Source: Perna viridis
Taxonomy: Eukaryota
Length of the DNA stretch: 64,000 nt
Direction: 5' to 3'
NCBI GenBank assembly: GCA_037379345.1
Contig: CM074519.1
Coordinates: forward strand, 40,964,851-41,028,850
Position 1 is the stretch's first letter. Each line of letters starts with the position of its first letter. The notes beneath the pieces were generated by a model. That model worked only from the letters and a program-made list of their open reading frames with translations. It searched no databases and was not told the DNA's origin. Shown one piece after another: positions 4,896 to 53,224 of the stretch. The position numbers and the translations under genes were made by a program.

Positions 4896-7800
4896 CCAAT
4901 GACAGCAACACCATCACCATGTAGTATTCTAAGGCGTACCAATAGCCGCAACACCACCACCATGTAGTATTCTAAGGCGTACCAATAACAGCAACTTCAA
5001 CACCATGTAGTATTCTAAGGCGTACCAATAGTATCCTGAGACGTACCAATTGCAGCAACACCAACCCCATGTTGGATTCTAGAATGTACCAATAGCAGCA
5101 ACACCAAAACTATGAAGTATACTAAGGTGTACCAATAGTAGCAACATCAACACCATATTGTATTCCTAGGCATACCAACGCCATGTAGTATTCGAATGCG
5201 TACCAATAGCAGCAACACCAACGCCATGTAGTATTCTAAGGCGTACCAATAGCAGCAACACCAACACCATGTAGTATTCTAAGGCGTACCAATTGCAATA
5301 ACATCAACACCATGTAGTATTCCTAGGCATACCAATTGCAGCAACACCAACACCATATAGTATTCTAAGGCGTACCTATTGCGGCAACCCAACCACGATA
5401 TGATATTCTAAGGCATTCCAATTGCAGCGGCTCCAACGTCATGTAGAATTCTAAGGCATACCAATAGCAGCGACACCAACAACATGTAGTATCCAAAGGC
5501 GTTACAATGGCAATAACACCAACACCATGTAGTATTCTAAGGTGTACCAATAGCAGCAACACCAAAAACATGTAGTATCCTAAGGCGTAACAATGGCAAT
5601 AACACCAACAACATGTAGTATTCTAAGACGTACCAATGGCAATAACATCAACACCATGTAGTATTCCTAGGCATACCAACTGCAGCAACACCAACGCCAT
5701 GTTGTATTCTAAGGCGTACCAATAGCACCAACTTCAACAGCATGTAGTATTCTAAGGCGTACCAATAGCAGCAACACCAACGCCATGTAGTATTCTAAGG
5801 CGTACCAATAGCAGCAACACCAACGCCATGTAGTATTCTAAGGCGTACCAATAGGAGCAACACCAACCCCATGTTGTATTCTAAGGCGTACCAATAGCAG
5901 CAACACCAACGCCTTGTGATGTATTCTAAGGCGTACCAATAGCACCAACTTCAACACCATGTAGTATTCTAAGGCGTACCAATAGCAGCAACACCAAAGC
6001 CATGTAGTATTCTAAGGCGTACCAATAGCAGCAACACCAATGCCATGTAGTATTCTAAGGCGTACAAATAGCAGCAAAACCAACACCATGTAGTATTTTA
6101 AGGCGTATCAATGGCAATAACATCAACACCATGTAGTATTCCTAGGCATACTAATTGCAGCAACACCAACGCCATGTTGTATTCTAAGGTGTACCAATAG
6201 CAGCAACACCAACAACATGTAGTATTCTAAGGCGTAACAATGGCAATAACATCAACACCATGTAGTATTCTAAGGTGTACCAATAGCAGCAACACCAACA
6301 ACATGTAGTATTCTAAGGCGTACCAATTGCAGCAACACCAACGCCATGTTGTATTCTAAGGCGTACCAAGAAAAGCAACACCAACACCATGTAGTATTCT
6401 AAGGCGTATCAATGGCAATAACATCAACACCATGTAGTATTCCTAGGCATACCAATTGCAGCAACACCAACGCCATGTTGTATTCTAAGGCGTACCAAAA
6501 GCAGCAACACCAACAACATGTAGTATTCTAAGGCGTACCAATTGCAATAACATCAACACCATGTAGTATTCCTAGGCATACCAATTGCAGCAACACCAAC
6601 ACCATATAGTATTCTAAGGCGTACCTATTGCAGCAACCCAACCACGATATGATATTCTAAGGCATTCCAATTGCAGCGGCTCCAACGTCATGTAGAATTC
6701 TAAGGCGTACCAATAGCAGCAACACCAACAACATGTAGTATCCATAGGCGTAACAATGGCAATAACACCAACACCATGTAGTATTCTAAGGTGTACCAAT
6801 AGCAGCAACACCAAAAACATGTAGTATCCTAAGGCGTAACAATGGCAATAACACCAACAACATGTAGTATTGTAAGGTGTACCAATAGCAGCAACACCAA
6901 ACCCATGTAGTATCCTAAGGCATAACAATGGCAATAACACCAACAACATGTAGTATTGTAAGGTGTACCAATAGCAGCAACACCAAAACCATGTAGTATT
7001 GTAAGGTGTACCAATAGCAGCAACACCAAAAACATGTAATATCCTAAGGCGTAACAATGGCAATAACACCAACAACATGTAGTATTCTAAGACGTACCAA
7101 TGGCAATAACATCAAAACCATGTAGTATTCCTAGGCATACCAATTGCAGCAACACCAACGCCATGTTGTATTCTAAGGTGTACCGATAGCACCAACTTCA
7201 ACACCATGTAGTATTCTAAGGCGTACCAATAGCAGCAACACCAACGCCATGTAGTATTCTAAGGCGTACCAATAGCAGCAACACCAACGCCATGTAGTAT
7301 TCTAAGGCGTACCAATAGCAGCAACACCAACGCCATGTAGTATTCTAAGGCGTACCAATAGCAGCAACACCAACCCCATGTTGTATTCTAAGGCGTACCA
7401 ATAGCAGCAACACCAACGCCTTGTGATGTATTCTAAGGCGTACCAATAGCACCAACTTCAACACCATGTAGTATTCTAAGGCGTACCAATAGCAGCAACA
7501 CCAAAGCCATGTAGTATTCTAAGGCGTACCAATAGCAGCAACACCAATGCCATGTAGTATTCTAAGGCGTACAAATAGCAGCAAAACCAACACCATGTAG
7601 TATTCTAAGGCGTATCAATGGCAATAACATCAACACCATGTAGTATTCCTAGGCATACTAATTGCAGCAACACCAACGCCATGTTGTATTCTAAGGTGTA
7701 CCAATAGCAGCAACACCAACAACATGTAGTATTCTAAGGCGTAACAATGGCAATAACATCAACACCATGTAGTATTCTAAGGTGTACCAATAGCAGCAAC

Positions 7801-10800
7801 ACCAACAACATGTAGTATTCTAAGGCGTACCAATTGCAGCAACACCAACGCCATGTTGTATTCTAAGGCGTACCAAGAAAAGCAACACCAACATCATGTA
7901 GTATTCTAAGGCGTATCAATGGCAATAACATCAACACCATGTAGTATTCCTAGGCATACCAATTGCAGCAACACCAACGCCATGTTGTATTCTAAGGCGT
8001 ACCTATGGCAATAACACCAACAACATGTAGTATTCTAAGACGTACCAATGGCAATAACATCAAAACCATGTAGTATTCCTAGGCATACCAATTGCAGCAA
8101 CACCAACGCCATGTTGTATTCTAAGGTGTACCGATAGCACCAACTTCAACACCATGTAGTATTCTAAGGCGTACCAATAGCAGCAACACCAACGCCATGT
8201 AGTATTCTAAGGCGTACCAATAGCAGCAACACCAACGCCATGTAGTATTCTAAGGCGTACCAATAGCAGCAACACCAATGCCATGTAGTATTCTAAGGCG
8301 TACCAATAGCAGCAACACCAACCCCATGTTGTATTCTAAGGCGTACCAATAGCAGCAACACCAACGCCTTGTGATGTATTCTAAGGCGTACCAATAGCAC
8401 CAACTTCAACACCATGTAGTATTCTAAGGCGTACCAATAGCAGCAACACCAAAGCCATGTAGTATTCTAAGGCGTACCAATAGCAGCAACACCAATGCCA
8501 TGTAGTATTCTAAGGCGTACAAATAGCAGCAAAACCAACACCATGTAGTATTCTAAGGCGTATCAATGGCAATAACATCAACACCATGTAGTATTCCTAG
8601 GCATACTAATTGCAGCAACACCAACGCCATGTTGTATTCTAAGGTGTACCAATAGCAGCAACACCAACAACATGTAGTATTCTAAGGCGTAACAATGGCA
8701 ATAACATCAACACCATGTAGTATTCTAAGGTGTTCCAATAGCAGCAACACCAACAACATGTAGTATTCTAAGGCGTACCAAGAAAAGCAACACCAACACC
8801 ATGTAGTATTCCTAGGCATACCAATTGCAGCAACACCAACGCCATGTTGTATTCTAAGGCGTACCAATAGCAGCAACACCAACAACATGTAGTATTCTAA
8901 GGCGTACCAATTGCAGCAACACCAACAACATGTAGTATTCTAAGGCGTACCAATTGCAGCAACACCAACGCCATGTTGTATTCTAAGGCGTACCAATAGC
9001 AGCAACACCAACAACATGTAGTATTCTAAGGCGTACCAATTGCAATAACATCAACACCATGTAGTATTCCTAGGCATACCAATTGCAGCAACACCAACAC
9101 CATATAATATTCTAAGGCGTATCTATTGCAGCAACCCAACCACGATATGATATTCTAAGGCATTCCAATTGCAGCGGCTCCAACGTCATGTAGAATTCTA
9201 AGGCGTACCAATAGCAGCAACACCAACAACATGTAGTATCCAAAGGCGTAACAATGGCAATAACACCAACACCATGTAGTATTCTAAGGTGTACCAATAG
9301 CAGCAACACCAAAAACATGTAGTATCCTAAGGCATAACAATGGCAATAACACCAACAACATGTAGTATTGTAAGGTGTACCAATAGCAGCAACACCAAAC
9401 CCATGTAGTATCCTAAGGCATAACAATGGCAATAACACCAACAACATGTAGTATTGTAAGGTGTACCAATAGCAGCAACACCAAAACCATGTAGTATTGT
9501 AAGGTGTACCAATAGCAGCAACACCAAAAACATGTAATATCCTAAGACGTACCAATGGCAATAACATCATAACCATGTAGTATTCCTAGGCATACCAATT
9601 GCAGCAACACCAACGCCATGTTGTATTCTAAGGTGTACCGATAGCACCAACTTCAACACCATGTAGTATTCTAAGGCGTACCAATAGCAGCAACACCAAC
9701 GCCATGTAGTATTCTAAGGCGTACCAATAGCAGCAACACCAACGCCATGTAGTTATCTAAGGCGTACCAATAGCAGCAACACCAACCACGATATGTAGTA
9801 TTCTAAGGCGTACCAATTGCAGCAACACCAACCAACGCCATGTAGTATTCTAAGGCGTACCAATAGCAGCAACACCAACGCCATGTAATATTCTAATGCG
9901 TACCAATAGCAGCAACACCAAAGCCATATAGTATTCTAAGGCGTACCAATAGCAGCAACACCAACGCCATGTAGTATTCTAAGGCGTACCAATAGCAGCA
10001 ACACCAACGCCATGTAGTATTCTAAGGCGTACCAATAGCAGCAACACCAACACCATGTAGTATTCTAAGGCGTACCAATAGCACCAACTTCAACACCATG
10101 TAGTATTCTAAGGCGTACCAATTGCAGCAACACCAACACCATGTAGTATTCTAAGGCGTACCAATAGCAGCAACTTCAACACCATGTGGTATTCTAAGGC
10201 GTACCAATAGCAGCAACTTCAACACCATGTAGTATTCTAAGGCGTACCAATAGTATCCTGAGACGTACCAATAACGCCATGTTGGATTCTAGAATGTACC
10301 AATAGCAGCAACACCAACACCATGTTGTATTCTAAGGCGTACCAATAGCAGCAACCCAAGTACGATATGGTATTCTAAGGCATTCCAATTGCAGCGGCTC
10401 CAACGTCATGTAGAGTTCTAAGGGGTACCAATAGCAGCAACACCAACAACATGTAGTATCCTAAGGCGTACCAATGGCAATAACACCAACAACATGTAGT
10501 ATTCTAAGGCGTACCAATGGCAATAACACCAACAGCATGTAGTATTCTAAGGCGTACCAATGGCAATAACACCAACAACATGTAGTATTCTAAGGCGTAC
10601 CAATGGCAATAACACCAACAACATGTAGTATTCTAAGGCGTAACAATGGCAATAACACCAACAACATGTAGTATTCTAAGGCGTAACAATAGCAGCAACT
10701 TCAACACCATGTAGTATTCTAAGGCGTACCAATGGCAATAACACCAACAACATGTAGTATTCTAAGGCGTACCAATGGCAATAACACCAACAACATGTAG

Positions 10801-10933
10801 TATTCTAAGGCGTAACAATGGCAATAACACCAACAACATGTAGTATTCTAAGGCGTAACAATAGCAGCAACTTCAACACCATGTAGTATTCTAAGGCGTA
10901 CCAATAGCATCAACACCAACGCCATGTAGTATT
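4896..10933. repeat. Satellite array, 43-bp monomer, ~140 copies, with higher-order repeats
   Basis: Consensus ATGTAGTATTCTAAGGCGTACCAATAGCAGCAACACCAAC(G/A)CC with period 43 (e.g. ATG at 7206 and 7249). Diagnostic variant blocks recur at ~5375, ~6624 and ~9122. Confidence 0.97.
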
Positions 10934-10936
10934 TGT

Positions 10937-11674
10937 TGTGAAATACGTTTTCACATATATTAATTATCCTGAAGTATTTTGGGAATTATAACAGTTTTGG
11001 GAAGACAAATGTGTACTTCGGGAGAATGGTTTAGCATTGTCTTACCATTTAAGTTATTAATTATTATCATTTTAACAGAAATCTGTCGCTGTTTTGACGT
11101 CTACATTTTCCACCAAAGTAGAGTTATCGTTCTTTAGGCGTACATTAATTTTTATACCAAGACTGGTTAGATACGGGTTTAACTTCCGTGTTTTGTGTTA
11201 ATTAGGTGTTTCTACTCAAAACAAAGTTGGTAAGTTCAAAATTCGACTGTCCCAGGGATCGGCTGTATCGTTCCCTTGACCTGTTTATTTGCCACGTTTG
11301 GACTTGTGGATATTTATACAGTCAACGATAAGCTTTATAGCTCTTTTTATACACATCTTCCTGTATTTCAAGTGTTTTTAGACGAGGAATATCGCAACGC
11401 TTTTACTTGGTGGTGCTGTTTTTGTTTAGCCCAACCCCGGCCTAAATTTGATATTTTATTATTATCACTAATAATTCTTTAGTGTTAGATTTATACTTTT
11501 GTCTGACATGCAGGTTCTTTGACTTGGGTAACGGAATTTGTATATTGTTTTTGGATTGTCAAAATTATATTCCTGCATAATAAACTCTTCATTTTTATAC
11601 GTGTTACATGCAGCTTCTACGCCTATCAGTTTCTGATTAATTCGTAGATTTCCGCTCGGTTTCCTAGTTTTACA
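10937..11674 (+). repeat. Gypsy 5' LTR (738 bp, TG...CA)
   Basis: Starts TGTGAAA and ends TTTTACA 4 nt before the PBS. The first ~270 bp match 18805-19055. Confidence 0.88.
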
Positions 11675-11678
11675 ATAT

Positions 11679-11696
11679 TGGTGGCAGCGGTGGGAT
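11679..11696 (+). promoter_or_regulatory. Primer binding site, tRNA-Leu
   Basis: TGGTGGCAGCGGTGGGAT is the 18-nt complement of the 3' end (ATCCCACCGCTGCCACCA) of metazoan tRNA-Leu(AAG/UAG). Confidence 0.9.
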
Positions 11697-11965: not shown

Positions 11966-13678
11966 ATGGCGGATAGTCCTGTGGCTCATTCTAGTTCTCG
12001 TACTGGTGTTATTACTATATCTCAGTTTTCAAAAAAGGGGGAAAATATAGTATATGAGATATCAAACTTTAACTATATTTCTCAAGCTGAGATATCACAG
12101 TTGGTAAGTAGTCACAGTAGTGGATCACTTCATGAGAGATGCTTAAGTGAAGGTGCATTAAATATAACCAGTTCTGAGGTAAATACAGAGTCTAGTGATG
12201 TTAGACAAGAGAATATGAAGCTCAAACAGCAGTTATCAGATGTGAGTAATCAACTAGCACAGACAGAAGATAGTCTAGAACATGCTGAGAACGATGTAGC
12301 AGAGACAAAAAGAGAACTTTTTGACACTATGCAGAGTTAGTTGAAGGTTAAAAAAAATGTGTCAAATTATGAAAAGCTCTTGAATGATGCAAATGCGCAA
12401 AATTGGCATTTGAAACAAGACATTTAGAAGGTAAAAACTGAGAAAATCAGGTTGCGGTACGACATGAAAACAGATCTTGACCAGGTAAAGAATGAAAATG
12501 TCAAACTAGAATACGAGATGAAAAACAAAGATTCAGAGATACAACGTCTGACATTAGAGTTGAGAAATGTGTCAAGGGCAGGTAATTGGAGTTCCACTGA
12601 GAATAGTAACTCAGCATTACAGAGAAACGCTGGTGCACAGAGGGTAGATTATGGTCACGGAAATGAGTTTTATGATACTAGGGGTTACATTCAGACAGGT
12701 ATGGGTAACCATAGTAGCAGTATTAGCAGTTACGAAGCCTTCATCCTCACGGGATTCAGGTAGTGTTAGTCATTCAGAGGAACCCAAGTTCAGGCTGCCA
12801 TATTTTAATGGTAAAAGTGATTTCCAGAGTTTTTGGGCTATCTTTGAGACTGGAATAAAAAAGTTCAATTGGGACAATGACAAGCAATTAGAACATCTTA
12901 TGTGTAGCTTAAAAGATGAAGCTTTGGTATTTGTGACCAAATTGCCTGTACCTGTAAAAGGTAATATCAGAAACCTTTATACTGCACTGGACCAGAAATA
13001 TGGTGATTTTCTGTTACCTGAGCACTATCGGGAACAGTTAAATCAGATAAAAAAGAACAGTAAAGAAACCATGATTGAGTATGCAAACAGAGTAGAGGAG
13101 ATTGTGAATAAGGCATACCCAGAACTAAGTCCACCTCATTTAGTGACCACACTTACTATTGAGCACATTTTAAGAGGGTTGATAGATCAGAACCTATCAT
13201 ATGAGGTAAGAACAAAACAACCAAAGACGATTGATGAAACTTTGCAACTCATAACCTGGCATGAGTGTTGTAGAAATGGAAACAAACGCCAATTGAGTAT
13301 AAGCAAATAGAGGAAGATGACTGATGAAATTTGTAAGGTTGGTAATAGTAAGCAATTTGTCACAGAAGACAAATTCAAAGAGGTGAAGAATCAGATAAGC
13401 AATTTAACAGGTAAAATAAGTAAATTAGCTGCTACATTGCAACAAAATGTTGGTAACAGAGGTAATACAAAAGTCGTGAGGAAAAAAGGGCACGATATGC
13501 TGAAATTACTTGTTAAAATGCAATGAAAAGGGTCATACAAGCAGATTTTGTCGTCAAAACAAGGAGAAAAGAGGTAACTCAGGACAGAGTAATGATGATA
13601 AGAGAAATAGGATCGAAGAAAATTATGGTAAATGCAAAGGCAAGAATGTGAGTGCTGATGATAAGTCCTTAAACTAGT
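11966..13678 (+). pseudogene. gag: Gypsy gag, disrupted (coiled coil, capsid-like domain, CCHC knuckle)
   Basis: Coiled-coil ORF fragments, then KFRLPYFNGKSDFQSFWAIFE...LMCSLKDEAL capsid-like motif. A broken C-x2-CNEKGHTSRFC knuckle lies at ~13510-13552. Ends TTAAACTAG. Confidence 0.85.
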
Positions 13679-13828
13679 TGGGGCTAAGGCTGACGGCCAA
13701 GACTTGGCCCAGGTAACTATTGATGGAAATGAACCTCTGACACATGGCTTGGATAATTGTTCAAAGGTTGGTTTTCCACGTAGATACTCTCACTGTTCCT
13801 ACTGAGGAGGAAACATTCTAGTGTTGTA

Positions 13829-16800
13829 GTGAATGATAGTAGTAATTCAAAGCCTTCCGGGGTTTTGGAATTAGCTGATGAAAATCCTTGTAAATTTGTT
13901 GATTTTGATGGTGAACTGGGTGATGCAGATATTGTTATAGATAGAGTTAGAGAAATTACATTGAAGGTTCCTGTTGATGGTGCAGTGGTTAATGCTGTTG
14001 TCGATACAGGGGCAGAGGTGACTGTTATGAGCAAGTCTGCTTATTATCGAATTCCTGAGGTAAATCGTCCATGTCTTTATCAGGCTCGGAGAAACCTGGT
14101 TGTAGCAGAGGCTGGAAGGAAAATGAGTACTTCAGGTGTTGCTGATGTTTCAGTACAAATTTGTTCTTTACAATTTGATTAGTCATTTTTTGTTGCACCA
14201 ATAGGGGACGATATACTACTTGTTTGTGACGTTATTGATGACAAGGATATCACCATAAATACAAGGAGAGGTTTGCAGGTTGAAAGAGAATGGGTTAATT
14301 GTGATGTCACTCGTAGGGCTGATAAAGTTGCACGTGTACGTTTAAAGGAAACGGTGACTATTCCTCCTAACAGTGAAGTTATTCTACCAGGTCGTAGTGT
14401 TAACTCTGAAGTTATGGATACTAGATATTGTAGCATTGAGCCTCTATTTGAAGATGACATGAATTTGTTGGTTGCTAGATGTTTAGTAGACCCTTATCAG
14501 AAAACTGTACCAGTTCGCATTGTAAATCTTGAGAATACTCCTATCAAAATAAAGAAAAACTATTTGATTGGCGAGTTACATCCTGTAGTGCATTTTGAAA
14601 ATATTGATTCTGAGGTAAAGAATGAAACTTCAATGTATGATAATTCAATTGCTAATTCTATTAACCAACCGAATATATTTGATCCTTTTATTCCTGATGA
14701 TTGGAAGTGTAGTAAAATTTCTTCAGATTGTTTTGCTAATGAAAGAGATTTGGCCGAAGTTCCTAAAGTACCAGAACATTTTGTTGAGTCGTTTGATAAA
14801 AGTGCAGAGAAACTTGTTGATCAAAAACACAAGGTTAAGTTAGCTGAGGTTTTGTTGAATAATGCTAATGCCTTTGCTAAAACAAATTAGATCTTGGTTC
14901 TTGCTCAGTTATTTCACATAAAATTGATACCTCAGGGACAAGGCCTGTTAGACAGCCTTTAAGAAGGACACCTCGAGGTTTGGAAGGTGAGGAGGAAAAA
15001 TATTTGCAAGATCAAATTGCCAATGGAGTTGTTGTGCCATCTAAATCTAGTTGGGCCTCACCTATGTGCTTAGTTAGAAAAAAAGATATGTCAGTAAGGT
15101 GGTGTATAGATTATAGACGTCTTAATAATTGTACTATTAAAGATGCCTATCCCTTACCAAAAATTTTTATGTGCTTAGATTGTCTTGCTGATGCAAATGT
15201 TTTTTCTGTGATGGATTTACAGTCTGGCTATTGGCAACTTGAAGTGGCATCTGTAGATCGTCACAAAACGGCCTTTATTACAAAATATGGTCTGTTTGAA
15301 TACCCCAAAATGCCTTTTCGTCTTTGTAATGCCCCCTCAACCTTCCAAAGATATATGCAGTTAGTATTTAGAGGCATGCAATGGAAGACTCTTTTAATAT
15401 ATCTGGATGATATCATTTTATATAGTTCAAATCTTGATGAACATTTTGTCAAATTGATAGAAGTTCTGTCTCGCTTGAAAAATGCTGATTTGAAGCTTAA
15501 ACCATCCAAGTGTGAATTCATTAAAGATGAAGTTGTTTATTTGGGACACGTTGTTTGTAAAGAAGGTATTAAACCCAAACAAAAGATGATAGATTCTGTG
15601 AAAAATGGGAAAACACCTTGTTCAGTCAAGGAAGTTCAGAGATTTCTTGGGCTCTGTAACTATTACTGACAATTTGTATCAAAATTCAGTGAAGTCGCTT
15701 CTCCTCTTAGTTCACTGACAAAGAAAGATGTTCTATTTGAGTGGTCTAAAGCTTGTAATGAGTCCTTTCTGTTACTGAAAAAGGCATTATGTGAAGCTCC
15801 TATACTAGCATATCCTCTTTCTAAAGGGTTATTCATCTTAGCTACAGACGCTTCTAATGTAGGAATAGGCGCAGTCTTATCTCAAGTTCAAAATAACAAG
15901 GAAAAAGTAATTGCATTTGGCTCAAAGAAACTTGATAAGCCACAACAACGCTATCGCGTCATTAGACGTGAGCGTCTTGCTGTCATTACTTTCATTCACC
16001 AGTTTCGCCACTTTCTAATGGGGAGGAAATTTCTGTTACGAACAGATCATGGCTCTCTTTGTTGGCTATTTAGTTTTAAAAATCCACAAGGTCAATTAGC
16101 TAGGTGGATAGAGACTCTCTCACAATATAATGTGTAATATAAGATGCTGAAGAACCTCTTTGGAAACATCAAATCGAGGGAAAAGTTGATCCTCATTGCT
16201 CTTATTTTCAATCTCTAAATGATGAATGGTCAGATTTTAAAACTGATATTGATGACGTTGGAAATTTAGGTCATACCAGTGATATAATTCGAGTTGTAAC
16301 CAGGAGTCAAACATAAACTCGTCCTCAATGTAACTGGCTACAAGGTCATTCAGATGAGGAAGTTGAAATCTTTCAAAGGGAAGATGAAGTTTTGAAATAT
16401 GTCCATGAGTGGTTTGACAGTGGTCAGCCTAGCAGAGATGATGCTGCTGCATTTAGCCCCGCTGTTCGGAATTTATTGATTAAACTTTAATCATCTAGAG
16501 AAACAAAATGGTGTCATTTTCCAGAAGCGTTCTCTTTCAGACATTTCTGTACCTTCTTATCAGCTTTTGGTACCTAAAATATAAAGAAAGAGGTCATTAA
16601 AGATTGTCATGATGCTATGTGCGCGGCACATTTTGGAATTAGTAAAACTGTTTCAAAGACAAAAAGTCACTTTCATTGGTATAAAATGAGTGAAGATGTG
16701 AAATTACATATCAAAAGTTGTGATGTTTGCAACAGAGTTAAGTCATTTAATATAAAAACAAAGGCTGCCCTTCAAAAGTATTTAGTTGGTCATCCGATGG

Positions 16801-17659
16801 ATCGCATTGGGATTGATATCATTGGTCCTCTACCAAAAAGTCAAAGAAACAATAAATATATATTAGTGATCGGAGATCATTTTACTTGCTGGATGGAAGC
16901 GTACCTCCTTCCAAACCAACAAGGTGAAGTTGTTGCTGAGAAACTGGTCCATGAGTTCATATCTCGGTTTGGAACTTTTGAATTACATTCTGATAGAGGT
17001 ACTAATTTTTAGAGCAATCTTTTTGCTGAGATTTGCAAATTATTTGATATAAAGGAAACAAGAACTACATCTTATAGGCCTTGTTCTAATGGAATAATAG
17101 AAAAATTTAATGGGACCTTACAAAAAAGGATCCGTAGCTTTGTTGATAAGAATGTTCGTACCTGGGATTCTTATATTGGAATTCTTATGTCTGCTGATAG
17201 AAGCCTCCCACATCCAGCTACGGGGTTTTCTCCGAATATGCTTATGTTCGGTAGAGAGGTTTTGATGCCAAACCAGTTGATGTTTCCTCTGCCTAAGGGC
17301 CATTCAAATACTGATACTGATACTTACTGAGCTCATGTTACAGACAAATTGGAGGATGTCTACCATTTAGCTAGACAACACTTAAATTCGACTGCTGCGG
17401 TACAGAAATAGAATTATGATACTCCTCTTTCACAGACCCAATTTTCTAAGGGTTCCCTTGTCTATAAGTTCAACAGTTCTTCTAAGAAGCTGGAAGAAAA
17501 GTGGTCTGGTCCATATGTTGTTATTGATACTTTGGGTCCAGTTCTGTATAAGATTCAATTTAGACGGTTGATACTGTTCATCATGACAAATTGAAGTTGT
17601 TTCTATCAAACGATATTCCTTCTTGGGTCCAGGACGTCCGAAAGAAGATTTTATATTAG
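13829..17659 (+). pseudogene. pol: Gypsy pol, disrupted (protease, RT, RNase H, integrase)
   Basis: Protease AVVDTGAEVTV; RT WCIDYRRLN..DAYPLP and YLDDII; RNase H TDASNVGIGAVLSQ (~15844); integrase H..AAHFG..C..C, GIDIIGPLP and HSDRGTNF. Multiple internal stops. Confidence 0.93.
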
Positions 17660-17731
17660 CTGATTTAAGTCAGGGGTACCTGCTGTCAGTATTTGTTCAT
17701 TTAAAAATAATTAAACTTACTGTTAGAAGTA

Positions 17732-18484
17732 ATGTCTGATGTGTACGTCTGTAATTGGAATGATTGCCTCGTGGAATTGAATAAGAGAGATATGGTTCAT
17801 CATGTACTGGTAACTCATGTGGAGGAGGAAAGAGTCCCTTATTACTGTACCCTGTGCCATTATAGAACTACAACTTTGAGATTGTTGGAGAGAGATGTGT
17901 CAACATATAGGAAGCATAAAGATGCCATTGCAGATTTGACAGATAAAGAACAAGATTTTTTGAAAGTATTCCTTATTCCGTATTTTGTTGTTCTCGGTAC
18001 AGACCGTTCTGTTGACGCCATTCTAAAATCAGCATTGCCAGAAGAAGCTAAAAGCGACTCTGAGGGTGAGGCGAAAGACAGCTCAGAATTCGAATTTCAG
18101 ATCCGGAAATTTAGCACAGAGTTCTCTTTTTCAACCATCGAATGCCAGACTGATGGAACATTTCAAAACTACAAAGAATTAAAAGCTGAAATGAATATAC
18201 TAAAGGGTTCACATCAGGCAGAGCTAACTAGATTTGCTGATTTTATAGCCGGAAATGAAACTACACTCAAGCATAGATCAGATGAAGTTAAATTTCTGAA
18301 GGAAGAACTTGTGAAAAAGGATGTCAAAGTCCGCGTTCTTGAAAGGAATGTGAGACACAAGGACAATGAAATCGAAATTTTGAGACGGAAACTTAGATTT
18401 TATGAGAATCAAGACTATCAATTATATAAGAACAATAAAAAATTTGATTCCGAAAGAGATGAACCAGAAAAAAAAAGAAGATGA
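17732..18484 (+). CDS. Gypsy accessory ORF3: tandem C2H2-type zinc fingers plus C-terminal coiled coil (250 aa)
   Basis: CNWNDC-x11-H-x4-H, then VPYYCTLC-x12-D-x6-H (second finger has Asp at the expected His). Heptad-rich EVKFLKEELVKKDVKVRVLERNV...EIEILRRKL. Lies between integrase and PPT. Confidence 0.75.
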   Translation: MSDVYVCNWNDCLVELNKRDMVHHVLVTHVEEERVPYYCTLCHYRTTTLRLLERDVSTYRKHKDAIADLTDKEQDFLKVFLIPYFVVLGTDRSVDAILKSALPEEAKSDSEGEAKDSSEFEFQIRKFSTEFSFSTIECQTDGTFQNYKELKAEMNILKGSHQAELTRFADFIAGNETTLKHRSDEVKFLKEELVKKDVKVRVLERNVRHKDNEIEILRRKLRFYENQDYQLYKNNKKFDSERDEPEKKRR

Positions 18485-18769
18485 AAAGCGTTGTCCAGAA
18501 ACTGTTTTAAGTTTATTTATATTTCTTGTGGATATTTGTAAACAATGTGTGTTGATATTGTTACCACAGTATTTTATATTGTACTATTTTTATTTTGAGC
18601 AAAATTTTGTTCATATAATTTAAGTCGATTATTTAAAGGTAACTACATCTTCGTAGGTACTTTAAGGGGGTGAATGCCTCAGCACTTACTTGGATATTTC
18701 ATTTGTTCTAAAGAAAAAAGATTACAATAAATTTTCATTATCGTTTCTTCAAAGAAATTTTTCCTTTTG

Positions 18770-18803
18770 AATTTCGAGGACGAAATTATTTTTTTTGAGG
18801 GGG
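18770..18803 (+). promoter_or_regulatory. Pre-PPT hairpin and polypurine tract of the Gypsy element
   Basis: AATTTCGAGGACGAAATT hairpin (18770-18787), a T-run, then GAGGGGG (18797-18803) immediately before the 3' LTR. Confidence 0.85.
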
Positions 18804-18804
18804 T

Positions 18805-19055
18805 TGTGAAATACGTTTTCACATATATTAATTATCCTGAAGTATGTTGGAAAGACAAAAATATACTTAGGGATAATGGTTTAGCATTGTCTTACCATTT
18901 TAGTTATTAATTATTATCATTTTAACAGAAGTCTGTCGCTGTTTTGACGTCTACATTTTCCGCCAAAGTAGAGTTATCGTTCTTTTGGCGTACATTAATT
19001 TTTATACAAAGACTGGCTAGATACGAGTTTAAATTCCGTGTTTTGAGTAAATTAG
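18805..19055 (+). repeat. Gypsy 3' LTR, truncated after ~250 bp
   Basis: Aligns to 10937-~11205 with substitutions and an ~18-bp indel. Similarity stops abruptly at ~19055. Confidence 0.9.
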
Positions 19056-19959
19056 TCTTGTTATAGAATATTGTTGTATATAGTTATGTTTTATTCATTC
19101 TGCATATTTGTCAGTGGCGTCAGGGTTGTGAACGTCTTTTATTCCGCGAAATTAGCGTATTGCGGGAAAATTCTGAGTTTCGATGATATATACCTAAGAA
19201 TATATACTATCTGGCGTTCATTGTTGTTGCTACCGGCTATTCAAAAAGAAATATGTTTTCTTTATCAACTTTTTAAGGGGGAAATTTATGGCCTTCGTTC
19301 AAAATTTTATTAGAAAATGTCATATGTTTTCAGCCGAGACTACCAGTATTAGATATAATTACTTTATCGCTTTAACTTATGTTTTTTACAATACAGATGA
19401 CCTTAAGGTCATCACTATCAATAAAGTCAAGTATCCCAAATATAAATTGATAGGTTGATTATTCATGGGTCAAATTAAGACTATAAGATTTTAGTATACA
19501 TACTTGAAGTGAATGTTTTGTGTTTTAACTTTGAATAAGTGTACCACTGGTAGCAGTAGCATCGATTTCATGCTATTTTTTCTCAAAATTTCAGGTAGGC
19601 GTACGCGCGGTGCGTCCGTCCTTGGATCCGCGCCAGCTTTCTTATCTTCTTATTCAGCGCGTTTTTGGCCGAGAATCGAACCTACCGATCTCAAGCATGC
19701 AACAGTGGAGTATAACATTCTTACTAGTACGTGGGCTGAGATAAGTACCTGTGCACCCCCACTCATCAACCAAAATATAATTTTCAGTTACCCTTATACT
19801 TCCCATTTACGAATCTTTTTGTCGCCAAAAAATAAACTGAAGCATTTTTGTAATTTTTGGCTACTTTTTATACCTCGTTAATGCAAAAATCTAGTTATTT
19901 GATTCTACGAACTTCTTCCTTCTACGGAAAGAAGTAAACTGACATATGTATATATCATA

Positions 19960-25579: not shown

Positions 25580-27859
25580 TTACATCATTTCAAAATTTAT
25601 ACGAGAATTATTACAGTCCATGGAGTTGGTGTCTATGTTTTTGCTCGTATATACAACAGAAATATTAGAAACAGAAATGTTTAAGTCATTCTGTGATTCG
25701 TTCCCTTTCACAGTTTGCACAGTTTTCTGCAATAAAGATGATAAATCATCCTCAAAGCTTTTCAGACGATTGGAAAAATCAATTGACAAGCCAAGTCCAA
25801 AAAATGCCCGAATATACCTCTGTACAACGTCTCTTATTTTCAACATGTCGTAATTAATAACAATAATTTCATGATTAATATCCGTCCTATAATTATTCCA
25901 ACAATACTTCCATTCTTTCTGTATCCACATTTCAGAAGGCCCATCATAGTTTTCACTTAGAAATATAATATAATTAAGACACAAAGGTGTCACCTCAATG
26001 ATTTCCTCTTCTCGTGGCCTGCCTATTTCACTATCGCGAAACGGAAGGTATATTCTATATCCTTTACGGTCTAGATACGGAACAAGAAACGACAGCAACC
26101 AGTGGCGAAGACCATTATCCTCTTCATTGCAGGATATATATACTTCATAATCATATTGATGGGAGGATATTCGGACGGGCTTTATATGCTTAAAGAGTTT
26201 TCTTCCGAGAATGAATGTTTCATATCTAAACTTAAAGATAATAAAAGCGCAAACAAAAGTAATAATACATACTGTTCCTAAAGAGACTTTTATCCAAAGA
26301 ATGTACTCATCAACTTTCTTGCAGCCGAGTTCATCATCTGTCAGGTAAAGGATGTCAACGTATCCTTCAAATGTCTGGCAATATATCACAGTATTTACGA
26401 TACATTCCTGACGACTTTTGAGCCAGTCTTTCAACCAAAGGTCACCACAATGACACTTCATTCGAATATTACCCATGGTAATTCTACACGGATTGAGAAT
26501 CTGTAATGAGCGAGGAATCCCTGATATTTCATTTCCCGTGAAATTGACAAAGTAAGCAGATCGTAGGAGGGAAAACATTTCTTTTGGTAATTCTTGTATT
26601 TTATTCCTTGACAAGTCTAACTTGCTCACATAGACAAAATAGTTATTCGATCCAGGAATCAGGACACTCGAGAGGTTGGTAATTGCATTGTTTGATAAAT
26701 CCACATTGAGGTTTTTGTATAGTGGTAAAGCGGAGGGCAAACCTGTCCGACCTGTATTAGAACAGTTAATAATAGTCCTCCATCTATCTGGTTGATAGAA
26801 GCAACGACATCTTGGTGGGCATCTTTCCACCATTGATAAATTACAAATCAACCTTTGCAGGTTATTTGAATCTATCAGATCAAGGAGATATACATCTTTT
26901 AACTCCGCTGGCGAGTGACATCTAACTTTGAAATATTCTCGGTATATTTTTTGTGCGACTGCTACAGCTCTTAATGCAAATGGGTAAAATTTACAATCAC
27001 AAAACCAATCATTGTGTCTAAAGTCAAACCCATAAGACATTAGTTTTCCTAAATGAAAAATGTTTGAGAATCCAATATCGGCAAAATTCATAAATTGGGT
27101 AAATTTATTGTAAGAAAAATCAACCATGCCTCCTCGTCCAAAATCATCACTGCCCTTACAGTGCCAATGTAATTCGTTAACTATCCTTGAAATCTGGTTG
27201 TGAGAAAAGTCAACTTCGCAGAAGTTTTCCTGTTTTGACCATGCAATATTTGTAACGTCAGCTGTGGTGAGCAGGTTATGTGAAAAATTCACAAAAGAAA
27301 GACGGCCTTCCATGTTATATAGAAAGCCAGGTTCAATGTATCTCAGTCGATTGTAAGACAAATCTATTTTTTGTATATATTTCAATTCAATAAATGTTTC
27401 TTTCTTCAGATTGTAAATACTATTCCATTTCAGAATGAGTATAACCAAGTTTTTCAGACATTTAATTTTGTCTATATTACTGATATTGTTATAGGAAAAG
27501 TCTATCTCTACAACCTTTTGAAACTCACACAAATTAGTAGGAAGTTCTATCAGTTTGCCCTGCGAACCAGTATAATCCACACGATATTTAGTCCAAAAAG
27601 TTCCCCATTGCCCTTCCGAAAGCTCTGATGTACGGGTGTTTTTGTCGTAAGTAAGGTTTAATGATCTAGTATATTGGTATGATAACTCAGCATAACAAAC
27701 ACAGAATCCTATTTGCAGTCTTGACATAAAGTAACACAAGAGAGGGCATATGATGTCTGCCCTGTTCAAAATTGTCTGTAATCGTTGAGTTAGATCTGTT
27801 ACCGAATATGTCAAAGGGAGCACCGAGAGTGTACATACAAATATCAAATATCCCTTCAT
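25580..27859 (-). CDS. Toll-like receptor, intronless, short multiple-cysteine-cluster (protostome) type, 759 aa from the ATG at 27859
   Basis: Signal peptide MKGYLIFVCTLSVLPLTYS; LRRs (IDFSYNNIS, IDLSYNRL); internal LRRCT NDWFCDC and LRRNT CPPRCRC; further LRRs; LRRCT CHCGDLWLKDWL; TM VSLGTVCIITFVCAFII; TIR YEVYIS...RD..G...IIFLSENY...W..EW. Confidence 0.95.
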   Translation of the reverse strand: MKGYLIFVCTLSVLPLTYSVTDLTQRLQTILNRADIICPLLCYFMSRLQIGFCVCYAELSYQYTRSLNLTYDKNTRTSELSEGQWGTFWTKYRVDYTGSQGKLIELPTNLCEFQKVVEIDFSYNNISNIDKIKCLKNLVILILKWNSIYNLKKETFIELKYIQKIDLSYNRLRYIEPGFLYNMEGRLSFVNFSHNLLTTADVTNIAWSKQENFCEVDFSHNQISRIVNELHWHCKGSDDFGRGGMVDFSYNKFTQFMNFADIGFSNIFHLGKLMSYGFDFRHNDWFCDCKFYPFALRAVAVAQKIYREYFKVRCHSPAELKDVYLLDLIDSNNLQRLICNLSMVERCPPRCRCFYQPDRWRTIINCSNTGRTGLPSALPLYKNLNVDLSNNAITNLSSVLIPGSNNYFVYVSKLDLSRNKIQELPKEMFSLLRSAYFVNFTGNEISGIPRSLQILNPCRITMGNIRMKCHCGDLWLKDWLKSRQECIVNTVIYCQTFEGYVDILYLTDDELGCKKVDEYILWIKVSLGTVCIITFVCAFIIFKFRYETFILGRKLFKHIKPVRISSHQYDYEVYISCNEEDNGLRHWLLSFLVPYLDRKGYRIYLPFRDSEIGRPREEEIIEVTPLCLNYIIFLSENYDGPSEMWIQKEWKYCWNNYRTDINHEIIVINYDMLKIRDVVQRYIRAFFGLGLSIDFSNRLKSFEDDLSSLLQKTVQTVKGNESQNDLNISVSNISVVYTSKNIDTNSMDCNNSRINFEMM

Positions 27860-28269
27860 TCTGTCTATTGTTTTAATCGATATACTCAACCGAATTCGTT
27901 TGTTCCTTTCTTGAATAATCTAAGCTGTGAAAATATTTGTCACACAAATAGAATGCACAAAGTTCCCAACCGTTCCATAATTGACGTTCGCTTCTTTCAA
28001 TTTATTATTTTGTCTAACCGTATAATTGAATTAGATTCAACATACTAAATGACAAGTCTGTTTAATTAAATGATCTGATAGAAAGTCCATTGTAGAATAA
28101 GACTGTTACATAATAACTAAATGTTGTACACTTAAAGTTGAAGGTCACTACCGAAACTAATACGTTATGATATAACTAGTTCCGTTCTGTATCGTCTGAT
28201 TCATTATTGACAAAAGTAGATGCATACGAGTATGAGTTTAGAATGTATCTTTCTAAAATTCCACTTCCG

Positions 28270-46205: not shown

Positions 46206-48588
46206 GGTGTCTTCCACCTATTCCCACTTTTTAAAAAACATTATTCCTCCTATTCGCACATACAAGTTTCTTTGATGTTTTGATTTGTTTTTATAGTAAT
46301 TAAGCCCTACATAAATGACACCTTCTGTTTACCTGTGTTTACCTTTATTTTGCAATTTTTGTGCATATTTTATATTTTTACATAAGTATGAAAGAGAATG
46401 AGATTTAAACAAATGGAACATAAATTTAAGATTTTATTATAATATGTGATATGATATTTAACAAAATATAAATATTATCAGAAACTGAAAAAAAACTAGA
46501 CCAGAATCTAGACATTTTGATGTAATTAAATTACAGCTTTCTAATTGATTAAATAATTATGAACTGGCAAAGCTGAGAAATATTAAATGTTTCATTGCAA
46601 GCTGATGTACTGATTTGACAGATATGTACTCAGCTGAGAACCCCAAGCTTCATGAACTCCAAGCCAATGTTTGACTATATATTGTTGTCCATTCCCAGTT
46701 TTTGTCATTAAATAGTTACAATGGCTAATGCAATACTACAAGTGAAGTTCGTTACAAACAGACTTGGCAACCAAAACCTAGTACACAATGGCTTAAAGTT
46801 TCAAGCAAAAGACAGAAGGGGTGAAAGGACTTACTGGAAATGTTCTACTGCAAATTGTCCTGCTACAATTAATACATTAAACAATATACCAACCAAAGTA
46901 TCAGCAAATCACAACCATGAGTCTGATAACGTGCAGTCGAAGGAAGATGTAGTCCTGCAGAGCATGAAAAAACGTTGCATAGATGAGCTCACTCCAGTTC
47001 CCACTATCTATGAAGAAGAATTAGTAAAACTCAGAACTGATGACTGGAATGACGACACACAAGAACTAGTGGAAAATATTCCTACTTTCCCATCTTGTAA
47101 ATCAGCCATGTACAACAAACGCAAGAAAACTTTACCAGTTTTACCAAAGACCGCTGATGACATCAACATAGATGGTATTTGGACACAGACCACAAAAGGA
47201 GACCTTTTCCTTTTAGTGGATGACAACACAGTTGGACACATGTTGATATTCAGTACACACAAGAATCTAACACACTTAGCACTTGCAGAAACTATATATG
47301 GTGACGGCACATTTCATACATGCCCTACTCAATTCTACCAACTGTACACATTCCACGCAATGGTTGACAACGCAATGTATCCGATAGTGTACAGCTTACT
47401 ACCAGCCAAGAGCGAACTTGTATATACCAGATTTCTTATTCTACTCAAAGATTTATGTCAACAACATCAACTGCAACTTCAACCTAATACTATCTTTCTG
47501 GACTATGAGGTCGCCATACGCAACGCAGCATACTCAATCTTTCCTGGCATCAACGCAAAGGGTTGTTTTTTTTTTCACTATACTCAGAGCATATGGCGAA
47601 AAGCTCAGGAAACAGGTCTACAAGTGCCTTACAAAGAAGACAACAACATCCACCAATTAGTACGTCGTGCAGCTGTGTTACCACTCATATCCACTGCTGA
47701 GGTCGAAGACGTATAGTTTAATGCCCTTACTGATATAGATGATGTTGAAAAAAACGCCAACTACGTTCCCTTCACTGACTATGTAACAACTTACTGGGTA
47801 GAGCAGAACAGACACTTATGGAACCACTACACAACAGAAGGTCCAAGGACAACCAATCACTTAGAAGGATGGCATAGTAAACTTAAGAAACATGTTCAAC
47901 ATCCACACCCAAACATATTCAGACTCATAAAACAACTGAAACATGAGGAAGCCATCCATGACTTGACTATGATTCAATACGCAGCTGGTGGTAAAAGAGC
48001 AGTACAAAAGAGAAAGTATGTAGACATTAACAACAGGTTAGCAGCACTCAAAACCAGACATCGTAACCAGGAAGTCACCACTGTCCAGTTTGGTGATGCA
48101 GCTTCATACCTTCTGCACCTTGACTAAATTGATGAACTGTTAAATTGTTATGTGAAAACAAAATTATTGTGTATGTTTAATATATATGATCTAGTGCTTA
48201 ATATCATAGAGACTGGTTGAATGAATGTGTTTAAACTGATATTGTAACTTTCTTATGTCTTATGACTTATGTATATCAAAAACTACTGATTCATTAATAT
48301 ACATTATGTATTCATATATATAACTGTTTATTTATATTTACTTAAATTAAAAAGTATAATATTCAAAATTTACTTGTTTCTTTTTTATTATATTTATGCA
48401 ACAAAATGGAAATTCACTGACAAAATATATCATTTACCTGTCATTAATTACAAAATCAATTAACACCTAATCAAACATTGTTTATACAGTATAATCCTTT
48501 ATCTACACTATTTTCCACCTATTCCCACATGAAAATTTACCTTTTTATTACCTATTTTTATAAAAAGTGGGAATAGGTGGAATGAAAC
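46206..48588 (+). mobile_element. Full-length Mutator-like (MULE) DNA transposon with TIRs and TSD
   Basis: TIR core TTCCACCTATTCCCACTTTTTA at ~46212 and its reverse complement at ~48561-48582. 8-bp TSD GACTGAAC (46198-46205 and 48589-48596). Internal transposase. Confidence 0.92.
46721..48127 (+). pseudogene. FLYWCH-MULE transposase with one premature stop (TAG 47714-47716)
   Basis: FLYWCH LVHNG.KF...TYWKC...CPA...HNH; DDE core YGDGTF..CP..FYQLYTFH, LDYE, GCFFFH. The same frame continues past the stop with WNHY...RTTNHLEGWHSKL to TAA at 48125-48127. Confidence 0.92.
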
Positions 48589-51252: not shown

Positions 51253-52437
51253 TTATTTCTGTACCTTTTGCTTTAAATTATGTTTATCATTAAGTCGTTT
51301 CCATGTAAAAATAACATCAGATGGGTCATCGTACCCATGGCTTGCTACCATACCACCTAACATACTCTTTCTTTTCTTTTTACCAGAATAAAAGCCCGGA
51401 AGACCTAATGGCGAGATATGAAGTTTTCTTGCGACTATCCCGAGATATGCGTCATCCATAAATATTTGTTTAATGTAAGGAAATGCTAACTGAAATTGTT
51501 TAGCAGTTGTCATAGAAACAATATACGCCCCGCCCATTATATAAGGTGGCCATCGATCGAACGGGTAATTTTCCCATGAAATATACCATTTTGATCCCTT
51601 ATCTCTGAAAGGTATTGCACGACTAGTTATTGTTCCACCATATACATCTACTTTAGTCCTTAAACGATCTGGCAATTTGCACAAATTCTTAACGTTTACA
51701 AAATAGTCATCATCAACAAAGAAAAGATAATCAACATGTCTGCAATATTTAACTGCCCAATTAAAGCCCATTACAGTTTTTATTGTATTGTTTCGGTAAG
51801 TGTCGATGAAATTTTCTTGAATTATATCGTGAAAGAGATTTAATTCCTCTAACATATCGCATTCTGTTTCATTTTTTGGTAATCCTAACATGAACACAAT
51901 GTTGACATTAGAAATATTCTGTAGGTTCCCCCACGTGTTCCTTATTGTTTCTCTCCTCTCTTTATTGCATATATCAGATTTCACTAATATGAGTATTGTC
52001 CAATTTTCTTGTTTTTGAAAACTACATTTACTTTGAGGTAATATTGTAAAATGAAACGGTTGCGGATTTATAGCTGATATGTTAATATTTTTCTTCATTC
52101 TGATGTCTCTTATCAGTTGACCCATGTCCACTTCTAACGGGTATGAAAATTCTCTTTTATATGACATGCCTCTAAAAACGAGTTTATCCTTTTGTTCAAT
52201 CACTGATTTACGTAGTTTTTCCTTGTAAAAAAGGCTTGCTGTTGTGTTCAGATCGCCATTAGGAAATATTTCAGAAAATGTAATTTTATCTGCTTTCTTG
52301 GCGTATTCACTGTACTGATCAGAAAACAATACAATCTCCAGAAACAACATGAAACAGAAACACTGAAGACAAATTGTTCCTATGTTTCTAATACTCCACC
52401 TCTTACACCATCTGAAACGCTGACGTGAACGTGTCAT
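51253..52437 (-). CDS. GT31 beta-1,3-glycosyltransferase, brainiac/B3GALT-like, type II membrane, single coding exon
   Basis: N-terminal TM; LILVKS, RRETIRNTWG, DIIQENFIDTYRNNTIKT, FVDDD (DxD), PFRDKGSKWY, YP...PPY..GGAY, DDAYLG. Likely 5'UTR acceptor TTTCAG at ~52486. Confidence 0.93.
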   Translation of the reverse strand: MTRSRQRFRWCKRWSIRNIGTICLQCFCFMLFLEIVLFSDQYSEYAKKADKITFSEIFPNGDLNTTASLFYKEKLRKSVIEQKDKLVFRGMSYKREFSYPLEVDMGQLIRDIRMKKNINISAINPQPFHFTILPQSKCSFQKQENWTILILVKSDICNKERRETIRNTWGNLQNISNVNIVFMLGLPKNETECDMLEELNLFHDIIQENFIDTYRNNTIKTVMGFNWAVKYCRHVDYLFFVDDDYFVNVKNLCKLPDRLRTKVDVYGGTITSRAIPFRDKGSKWYISWENYPFDRWPPYIMGGAYIVSMTTAKQFQLAFPYIKQIFMDDAYLGIVARKLHISPLGLPGFYSGKKKRKSMLGGMVASHGYDDPSDVIFTWKRLNDKHNLKQKVQK

Positions 52438-53224
52438 TGTTAATACTTAGTGTCATACCTCTAGACGTATAGATCATTAGTGCCGCTGAAACAAAGGTTT
52501 AAATGTAAATTAAAATCTATCCACAACTTCCTATTCCAAAAGAAAAATAAAGAACAACTTTAATGTATTATAAATACAATTTATAACATTTAAATCTGAT
52601 TATTTTTACCTGTGATTGTGATTGTTCATGTTGCATGGAAGATATCAGTTTTAAACCACTATATTTGAATTTATACCTTTAGGTACACAAGTGATATGTA
52701 TTGCCATTATATATCAAGCAGATACATTATGAATGTACTTAATAAAAAAAAACATTAAAATGTAATTGCAGCATAGTAACATAACAAATGTTAAAACATG
52801 TGTAACCATACTTGTTTATATAGTTGTGACTAAATGTAACAGTGAATGTCTTACCTTTGGGAGTTTTATCAAACCAATAACATTAAACCATTGAAGTGTA
52901 ACTGTGTGTGTGCACTTAATCTGGTATCCATTATCTAAAGTTTACTGACCTTTTTACTCAAGTAACAATTGAATGCGGATCATTCATGTTTTAAATACTT
53001 AGGAACACACACAAGTCTTAATGTATTTTAACGATAGTGTACGATGGGTAGGGATATTGTTAATATTGAAAGTTTGGATAATTTTCTGTAATATGACTAG
53101 CGTTCCAATAAATTAAGCATAATTGTTTATTGTTTATTTTAAACATCAGCATTAATGCTATATGATGGTTAATGAATTTTATATAGGCATGTGGTCGTTA
53201 TGGAATCTACAATGTGGTGGTATA

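Follow-up and report, generated by a model that had tools for sequence, protein, structure and literature searches.

An LTR retrotransposon of the Ty3/Gypsy type in the mussel Perna viridis carries, between its integrase and its polypurine tract (PPT), a third open reading frame (ORF3) that is almost certainly a real, selected and element-borne accessory gene. ORF3 is a lineage-specific accessory gene, and neither an env gene nor a nested insertion nor a chance frame. Judging from its sequence, the encoded protein is expected to be a dimeric regulator in the nucleus that binds DNA by two zinc fingers and acts on transcription of the element, a reading to which a probability of about one half is given. 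Non-env ORF3s, as well as a spliced nuclear accessory protein (CERV), are already known; the zinc-finger family in mollusc Gypsy elements appears to be new. A sequence-only reading of the same DNA had suggested an element-encoded, uncharacterised accessory family of mollusc Gypsy elements, and both linkage and conservation support this suggestion.

The element was analysed within a window of 64,000 nucleotides (contig CM074519.1), and its features are collected in Table 1. It is a tRNA-Leu-primed element in which paired LTRs, a primer-binding site (PBS) and a PPT are all present, with PR-RT-RH-IN Pfam matches that follow the Gypsy order in broken frames. The 250-codon sense ORF noticed earlier between integrase and PPT is real, its ATG lying 72 nt downstream of the integrase stop (17657-17659) and its end 312 nt ahead of the PPT. 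The LTR pair differs at 17 of 253 aligned sites (6.7%), more than in four sister copies (1.4-3.1%), which places the window copy among the older ones. As to a target-site duplication, one of four sister copies gave a clean 4-bp match, the 3' LTR being truncated in the window. The first 14 loci matching the PBS pattern held no tRNA; tRNA genes were then located in two arrays, where tRNA-Leu genes (TAG and AAG) stand in tandem at G000:C6:6.66-6.80 Mb and C7:14.45-14.50 Mb. A tandem array of about 133 copies of a 43-bp unit (5174-10933) directly abuts the 5' LTR. Elsewhere, the window includes a Toll-like receptor ORF with LRR and TIR (25583-27919, minus strand), a FLYWCH-MULE transposase (46712-47713, plus strand) and a galactosyltransferase ORF (51256-52446, minus strand).

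Table 1. Features of the ORF3-bearing element, in window positions.
Feature	Position	Strand	Remark
5' LTR	10934..11677	+	internal deletion of ~145 bp at 11205 relative to sister copies
Splice-donor position in LTR (exon ends 11327)	11325..11333	+	degenerate in window copy
Primer-binding site, tRNA-Leu (TAG/AAG)	11679..11696	+	15-nt core also in genomic tRNA-Leu genes
gag region, broken	11967..13310	+	coiled-coil N-terminus, weak PNMA/capsid match
pol region PR-RT-RH-IN	13784..17659	+	interrupted by stops and frame shifts
Splice acceptor (pyrimidine tract and AG), 5 nt before ORF3 ATG	17713..17726	+	
ORF3 accessory gene, 250 aa	17732..18484	+	ATG at 17732, TGA ending 18484
Tandem zinc-finger domain and conserved P-Y..D extension (aa 5-95)	17744..18016	+	finger-2 His replaced by Asp here (17894-17896)
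ECQTD, predicted LC8 (dynein light chain) motif, immediately ahead of coiled coil	18140..18154	+	
Predicted coiled-coil helix, ~100 aa	18152..18457	+	
Basic tail	18458..18510	+	A-run frame shift; conserved terminal motif untranslated in window copy
Polypurine tract GAGGGGG	18797..18803	+	
3' LTR, truncated	18804..19173	+	~500 bp absent relative to sister copies

ORF3 has thirteen homologues, one near-identical and twelve at 44-48% identity; one homologue, named Mytilus coruscus, is fused to an integrase end. With a profile of the N-terminal 100 residues, 1318 representatives were retrieved at E<=0.001. Among the best 150 of these 1318, 117 match the profile in a single stretch of 60 positions or more and stand for domain-bearing protein clusters mutually below 50% identity, the other 33 being ordinary multi-finger proteins. 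The eight zinc ligands are retained in 89-100% of the 117 clusters, a figure inflated because the profile itself selected for ligands; P36 (98%), R/K45 (95%), P83 (93%) and D95 (88%) are conserved as well. A Pfam scan of 117 proteins, namely 115 of the profile-matched ones plus P0012 and P0015, gave integrase domains in six, host domains in two, weak finger hits in three and nothing in the rest, and one weak match to zf-C2H2_jaz was seen in this set. Animal names stood on 7 of the 26 proteins looked up, all of them molluscs (Mytilus, Mercenaria, Dreissena, Mya, Gigantopelta). Three clusters include records labelled as bacterial symbiont bins, which we infer to be host contamination. None of the 53 pattern hits in viral contigs was confirmed, and 1 of 452 was confirmed in metagenome contigs (L057, with no integrase seen on its 4.2 kb). 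A longer-protein search, in itself weak, gave nothing, and a look-up of atlas features gave only unnamed clusters without taxa.

Between families, ORF3 is under purifying selection, with saturated synonymous sites. Indeed, three pairs gave pS of 0.80-0.84 against pN of 0.35-0.50 (Fisher p 3e-16, 3e-4 and 4e-5) in local alignments, which favour conserved blocks, and these figures differ from the dN/dS of about 1 across the family that had been named beforehand as an argument against the gene.

The domain is also linked to pol. It is complete in 16 of the 20 stretches fetched around ORF3 hits in genome G000, and when these loci are checked against Gypsy integrase, as the earlier reading had proposed, 13 of them directly follow it, two follow RT or RT-RH and one has no pol upstream. 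The domain stands behind integrase in three families, and the RT of family B is ~47% identical to that of family A, the family of the window copy. Among 40 further Gypsy RT loci, picked for diversity among 146 RT matches, it was found in one at 20 bits and in another at 12 bits, both within the subclade of the window. In an RT tree of 45 rows, all from G000, the carriers form two subclades within one supported clade of 19 rows (96/92).

The copy in the window has itself decayed to a fossil: one zinc ligand is missing, the tail is out of frame and the splice donor no longer has its GT. Its fingers read C7-x4-C12..H24-x4-H29 and C39-x2-C42..D55-x6-H62, and a long helix is predicted over residues 141-242; this ligand pattern and this helix bear out the two tandem C2H2-like fingers and the long coiled coil described earlier. 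The Asp noticed at a His position of finger 2 is indeed present at residue 55, but it is private to the window copy, as His stands there in all seven other copies readable at that position. Likewise, the terminal PEKKRR exists but is not the ending of the family: it is the product of a frame shift in an A-run near 18470, and P0002 and most close homologues extend past that point to a conserved ...KSVV(Q/K)(K/R)LF tail. A search of its own genome with ORF3 gave 24 matches. When seven family-A copies were compared, leaving out the tandem duplicate L064, five had stops or frame shifts in ORF3. Pooled dN/dS within family A, from pairs that are not independent, is 0.61 for ORF3, 1.15 for RT, 0.62 for RH and 0.96 for IN, and single within-family pairs are not significant for ORF3 (p 0.41 and 0.057). 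Divergence within this family represents mostly neutral decay after insertion, and for this reason the argument that selection is visible in an ORF3 left open while gag and pol are broken fails for the window copy; it is also contradicted by the broken ORF3s of the other copies and by a window RT segment uninterrupted over 262 codons.

ORF3 is likely translated from a spliced, LTR-driven mRNA. The donor in the LTR is a canonical GTAAG in L058, L059 and L060 and is degenerate in the window copy, L062, L063 and L064; in L063, the GT is absent from both LTRs, and therefore a donor-less template was copied. An acceptor lies 0-9 nt before the ATG in 8/8 family-A copies read, 3/3 family-B copies (two further ones not being located), 2/2 family-C copies and a host-like gene discussed below, against a chance rate of 31 in 884 ATGs in four stretches. 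In run X8, a contig of depth 100.8 links 11326/7 with 17726/7, which are exactly the LTR donor and the ORF3 acceptor. This contig occurs in one of four runs, unreplicated, with 28 letters on its short side, and departs from ORF3 at 17799; the 17 small-share runs were taken as RNA by guess only. The LTR lies directly upstream of the ORF3 5' end in none of nine genomic copies, so the joint is not DNA of the assembly. A second joint, 12993-17786, was seen in 4/4 runs and was rejected as a splice, since its ends are not GT-AG and it matches the deleted genomic copy L005 (G000:C1:56.82 Mb), an internally deleted family-A copy that retains most of ORF3. A contig of run X1 passes through the LTR and exits at the donor (11327) into unrelated sequence, possibly by LTR-to-host chimeric splicing.

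The lack of a signal peptide and of a transmembrane (TM) segment, from which it had been concluded that ORF3 is not env, is confirmed: none of 83 family proteins of at least 200 residues has a 19-residue hydropathy peak above 1.9, and the structure model has no TM segment. A coiled coil scores above all shuffles in 52 of these 83 proteins. In AlphaFold2 models (pLDDT 85.9 for P0002; 88.4 for the L058 domain), a pair of beta-beta-alpha fingers is seen along with a beta extension, a linker that is disordered and a helix of 100 residues. Each finger thus has the two Cys, two His and fold of C2H2 fingers, the Asp of the window copy being the exception. The ORF3 protein has no Pfam family over cut-off, and the best PDB sequence matches of its fingers, a region of net charge +5, are DNA-binding C2H2 proteins (CTCF, E 7e-6). 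CTCF, MBP-1, BCL11A and the ZF1-2-CTD of ZIM-2/HIM-8 share with ORF3 beta-beta-alpha fingers, a PF/Y-x-C linker end and a basic surface, whereas ORF3 differs from classical C2H2 proteins by a longer linker, an H-x6-H second finger and a conserved P-Y..D extension. Foldseek searches with the domain fold gave no match at E<=0.001 in PDB and BFVD, and the best Z in VIA was 4.8, which is not a proof of a new fold. Canonical DNA-bound tandem arrays align with it at rmsd 4-5 A, all with Z below 5.

Motifs were counted in 78 tails, i.e. the 83 proteins minus five fused or host-like models; these tails form 42 clusters, including two large ones, and the counts are therefore not independent. An LC8-type motif is found in 34/78 tails (10 in shuffled and 9 in reversed sequences) and 13/42 clusters, KEN in 27/78 (4.8 and 2) and 11/42, CtBP-type PxDL[ST] in 9/78 (1.0 and 0) and 8/42, and phi-K-S-V-V, for which no explanation is offered, in 25/78 (1.2 and 0) and 4/42. 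All four occur at 5-47 times their rate in the 33 ordinary multi-finger control proteins. A terminal RxLF ends 15/78 tails, all in one cluster. KEN and RxL are presumably a KEN box and a cyclin-docking site, respectively. Patterns for D-box, RVxF, SILK, SIM, PxVxL, NES, PIP and LxCxE are not enriched in the tails. Q139-T140 is invariant in 14 close homologues, and the layout predicted for LC8 clients is present, with the xQT motif in a disordered stretch next to the coiled coil. The short subfamily of the window has the QT motif and lacks PxDLS, the family of the window lacks KEN, and CtBP-type motifs are confined to a clade of long forms to which family B belongs. PMC3078936 describes the LC8 consensus and where it usually lies, beside coiled coils, and PMC6627039 and PMC12992792 describe PLDLS as a CtBP motif.

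Coiled coil, missing TM segment and tail motifs support, at the level of sequence and models, the anatomy of a nuclear regulator that had been proposed. In the preferred reading, splicing from the LTR donor would bypass gag-pol to yield the ORF3 mRNA, and the basic tail would bring about nuclear import of the protein. The coiled coil would then dimerise it, held together at the QT motif by host LC8, the product of a single-exon gene at L093, while the fingers would bind DNA, with the LTR as the most plausible target. Long family members may in addition recruit CtBP via their PxDLS motifs, and KEN and RxL-type motifs may couple the level of the protein to the cell cycle.

A less probable alternative, though one that deserves weight, is a post-transcriptional regulator similar to Rev or CERV, in which the product of the spliced mRNA would bind unspliced genomic RNA by an RNA-type finger, oligomerise and license nuclear export. 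It is favoured by the gene structure, in which the full-length RNA contains an intron between the LTR donor and the ORF3 acceptor, and by the spacing of finger 2 together with the long helix, which recall TUT1, JAZ and spliceosome or pre-60S fingers. Indeed, the H-x6-H spacing is found in 105 of 113 matched proteins, and the closest local folds of finger 2 include RNA-associated fingers, namely TUT1 (Z 3.7, rmsd 2.9 A, 40 aa), 6qx9_A2 (Z 3.6) and JAZ (Z 3.2). With its wide His spacing and extended helix, this finger may be of the matrin/U1 type. A precedent exists in the CERV protein of Cer1 (PMC10309623). However, the fold scores are weak, NES-like patterns are not enriched (56 versus 62 in shuffled tails), and CtBP-type motifs with long P/S/T/Q-rich linkers suit transcription better. 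Moreover, the sister clade and most other Gypsy families do without the gene, though several have acceptor-preceded ORFs in its slot.

It is quite unlikely that ORF3 works as a decoy or anti-silencing factor rather than as a classical transcription factor, titrating or redirecting host silencing cofactors (LC8, CtBP) at element loci. The enrichment of LC8 and CtBP motifs in the tails points this way, as do reports that piRNA-guided co-transcriptional silencing cannot do without LC8 in Drosophila (PMC7861614) and that CtBP motifs rewire interactions of the piRNA pathway (PMC12992792). However, LC8 serves as a hub for dimerisation in general, and a single motif next to a coiled coil is therefore nothing unusual. 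An integration-targeting or particle-associated tether, guiding the integration complex to chromatin, is very improbable: DNA-binding-type fingers, basic tail, cell-cycle-type motifs and a site next to integrase would suit it, but ORF3 has its own ATG and acceptor, a stop separates it from integrase in all genomic copies read, and no shared target sequence is established. Finally, a captured host gene fragment or nested insertion travelling as a neutral passenger is the least credible reading and already largely refuted, since, although the domain also occurs in a single-locus gene with introns at G000:C7:11.97-11.98 Mb and two database models join it to host domains, ORF3 keeps the same position in families with 47% RT identity and saturated dS and has no repeats or termini of its own, and the tree position and C-terminal match of the host-like gene point to domestication from elements.

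This host-like gene is the one exception to the finding that the homologues are not host genes unlinked to elements, a possibility raised by the sequence-only reading. L072/L077 represent one multi-exon locus (G000:C7:11,972,770-11,980,684, minus strand) with the ORF3 finger domain, and no pol match lies within 50 kb of it. It has an orthologue in Mytilus californianus, LOC127729958, at 62% and 73% identity in two domains. In a midpoint-rooted tree without outgroup, its fingers are placed within the domains of elements (97/96), and its C-terminal domain finds a match in ORF3 of the Gypsy locus L111 (34%, E 4e-33); for these two reasons, domestication from elements appears the likelier direction.

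Accessory genes comparable to ORF3 have been described in other elements. In bdelloid rotifers, LTR retrotransposons carry non-env ORF3s (Rodriguez, Kenefick, Arkhipova 2017, PMC5408684) that are, like the mollusc ORF3, family-specific and located downstream of pol, the rotifer ones being typically expressed from a spliced message with varied cargo. This cargo differs, as it includes GDSL esterase, DEDDy exonuclease and TM or coiled-coil proteins, and the available text of PMC5408684 mentions neither zinc nor C2H2. CERV of the C. elegans element Cer1 is likewise a nuclear accessory protein of a Gypsy-type element, made from a spliced mRNA, with an NLS, a candidate zinc finger and oligomerisation (PMC10309623). 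Compared with ORF3 by description only, it differs in a C4-type loop with H, M and G domains instead of tandem C2H2 fingers and in a function that is experimentally shown. Adenovirus E1A and similar hubs resemble ORF3 as small nuclear regulators with a CtBP motif (PLDLS; PMC6627039), an NLS and disordered linkers. There is no homology between E1A and ORF3, and the CtBP motif is in only the nine family tails counted above. E1A is not known to bind DNA itself. The env genes of Errantivirus and metazoan Gypsy elements share the genomic slot and spliced expression (PMC13524379), whereas ORF3 differs by the absence of signal peptide, TM segment and F-protein match. No description of the ORF3 family was found in the literature searched, which did not extend to Repbase Reports, subscription journals and supplements, and a database annotation may exist. 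A zinc-finger ORF3 was not found in the available parts of PMC6238403, PMC8556966, PMC8220671, PMC13524379, PMC10294476, PMC12440569 and PMC5408684.

In the third subclade of the 19-row clade, the ORF3 slot is occupied by a different ORF, in which a Cys/His-rich finger region precedes a TatD-family DNase domain; the latter is over the Pfam cut-off in 3 of 4 loci tested (E 1e-38 to 5e-17). The TatD-bearing post-integrase ORFs are L098:4679-6190, L099:5532-6413 and L122:3985-4812, at G000 C15:7.60 Mb, C12:14.44 Mb and C13:30.62 Mb, and no description of TatD in Gypsy elements was found in the literature searched. A broader proposal, which we regard as speculative and rather unlikely as a whole, would make the Gypsy-encoded, sequence-specific zinc-finger regulator an E1A-like hub that uses LC8, CtBP, APC/C (KEN) and cyclin docking, times expression to the cell cycle and counters piRNA-type silencing at LTRs. 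The spliced slot behind integrase would then be a general cargo bay (zinc-finger regulator, zinc-finger-TatD nuclease, esterase-like, env) from which a host gene conserved in mussels also arose. The usual view of LTR retrotransposons in animals is that of gag-pol(-env), and a large, old and selected accessory family resembling transcription factors would show regulation in the style of complex retroviruses arising in a transposon lineage. The finger target, LC8, CtBP and KEN are testable handles on whether transposons of animals carry regulators or anti-silencing factors of their own, and the point is broadened by the TatD nuclease in the same slot of the sister clade and by the apparently domesticated host gene.

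Other post-integrase ORFs were observed in Gypsy loci. The one at L117:3508-4978 combines fingers with KEN and a BTB_2 domain, and the one at L116:4872-6558 has C2H2 fingers with several QT-type motifs. At L111:5463-6140, a Gypsy ORF3 of 226 aa (P0212) with a splice acceptor has no Pfam or PDB match and bears motifs that we take to be esterase-like (SGNH/GDSL). L109, L113, L123 and their neighbours form a Gypsy clade with env-like ORFs of 640-860 aa. The ORF of L113, in this other clade of the same genome, matches Baculo_F (F-type env), whereas the ORF3 family gave no viral fusion-protein Pfam match in the same scan.
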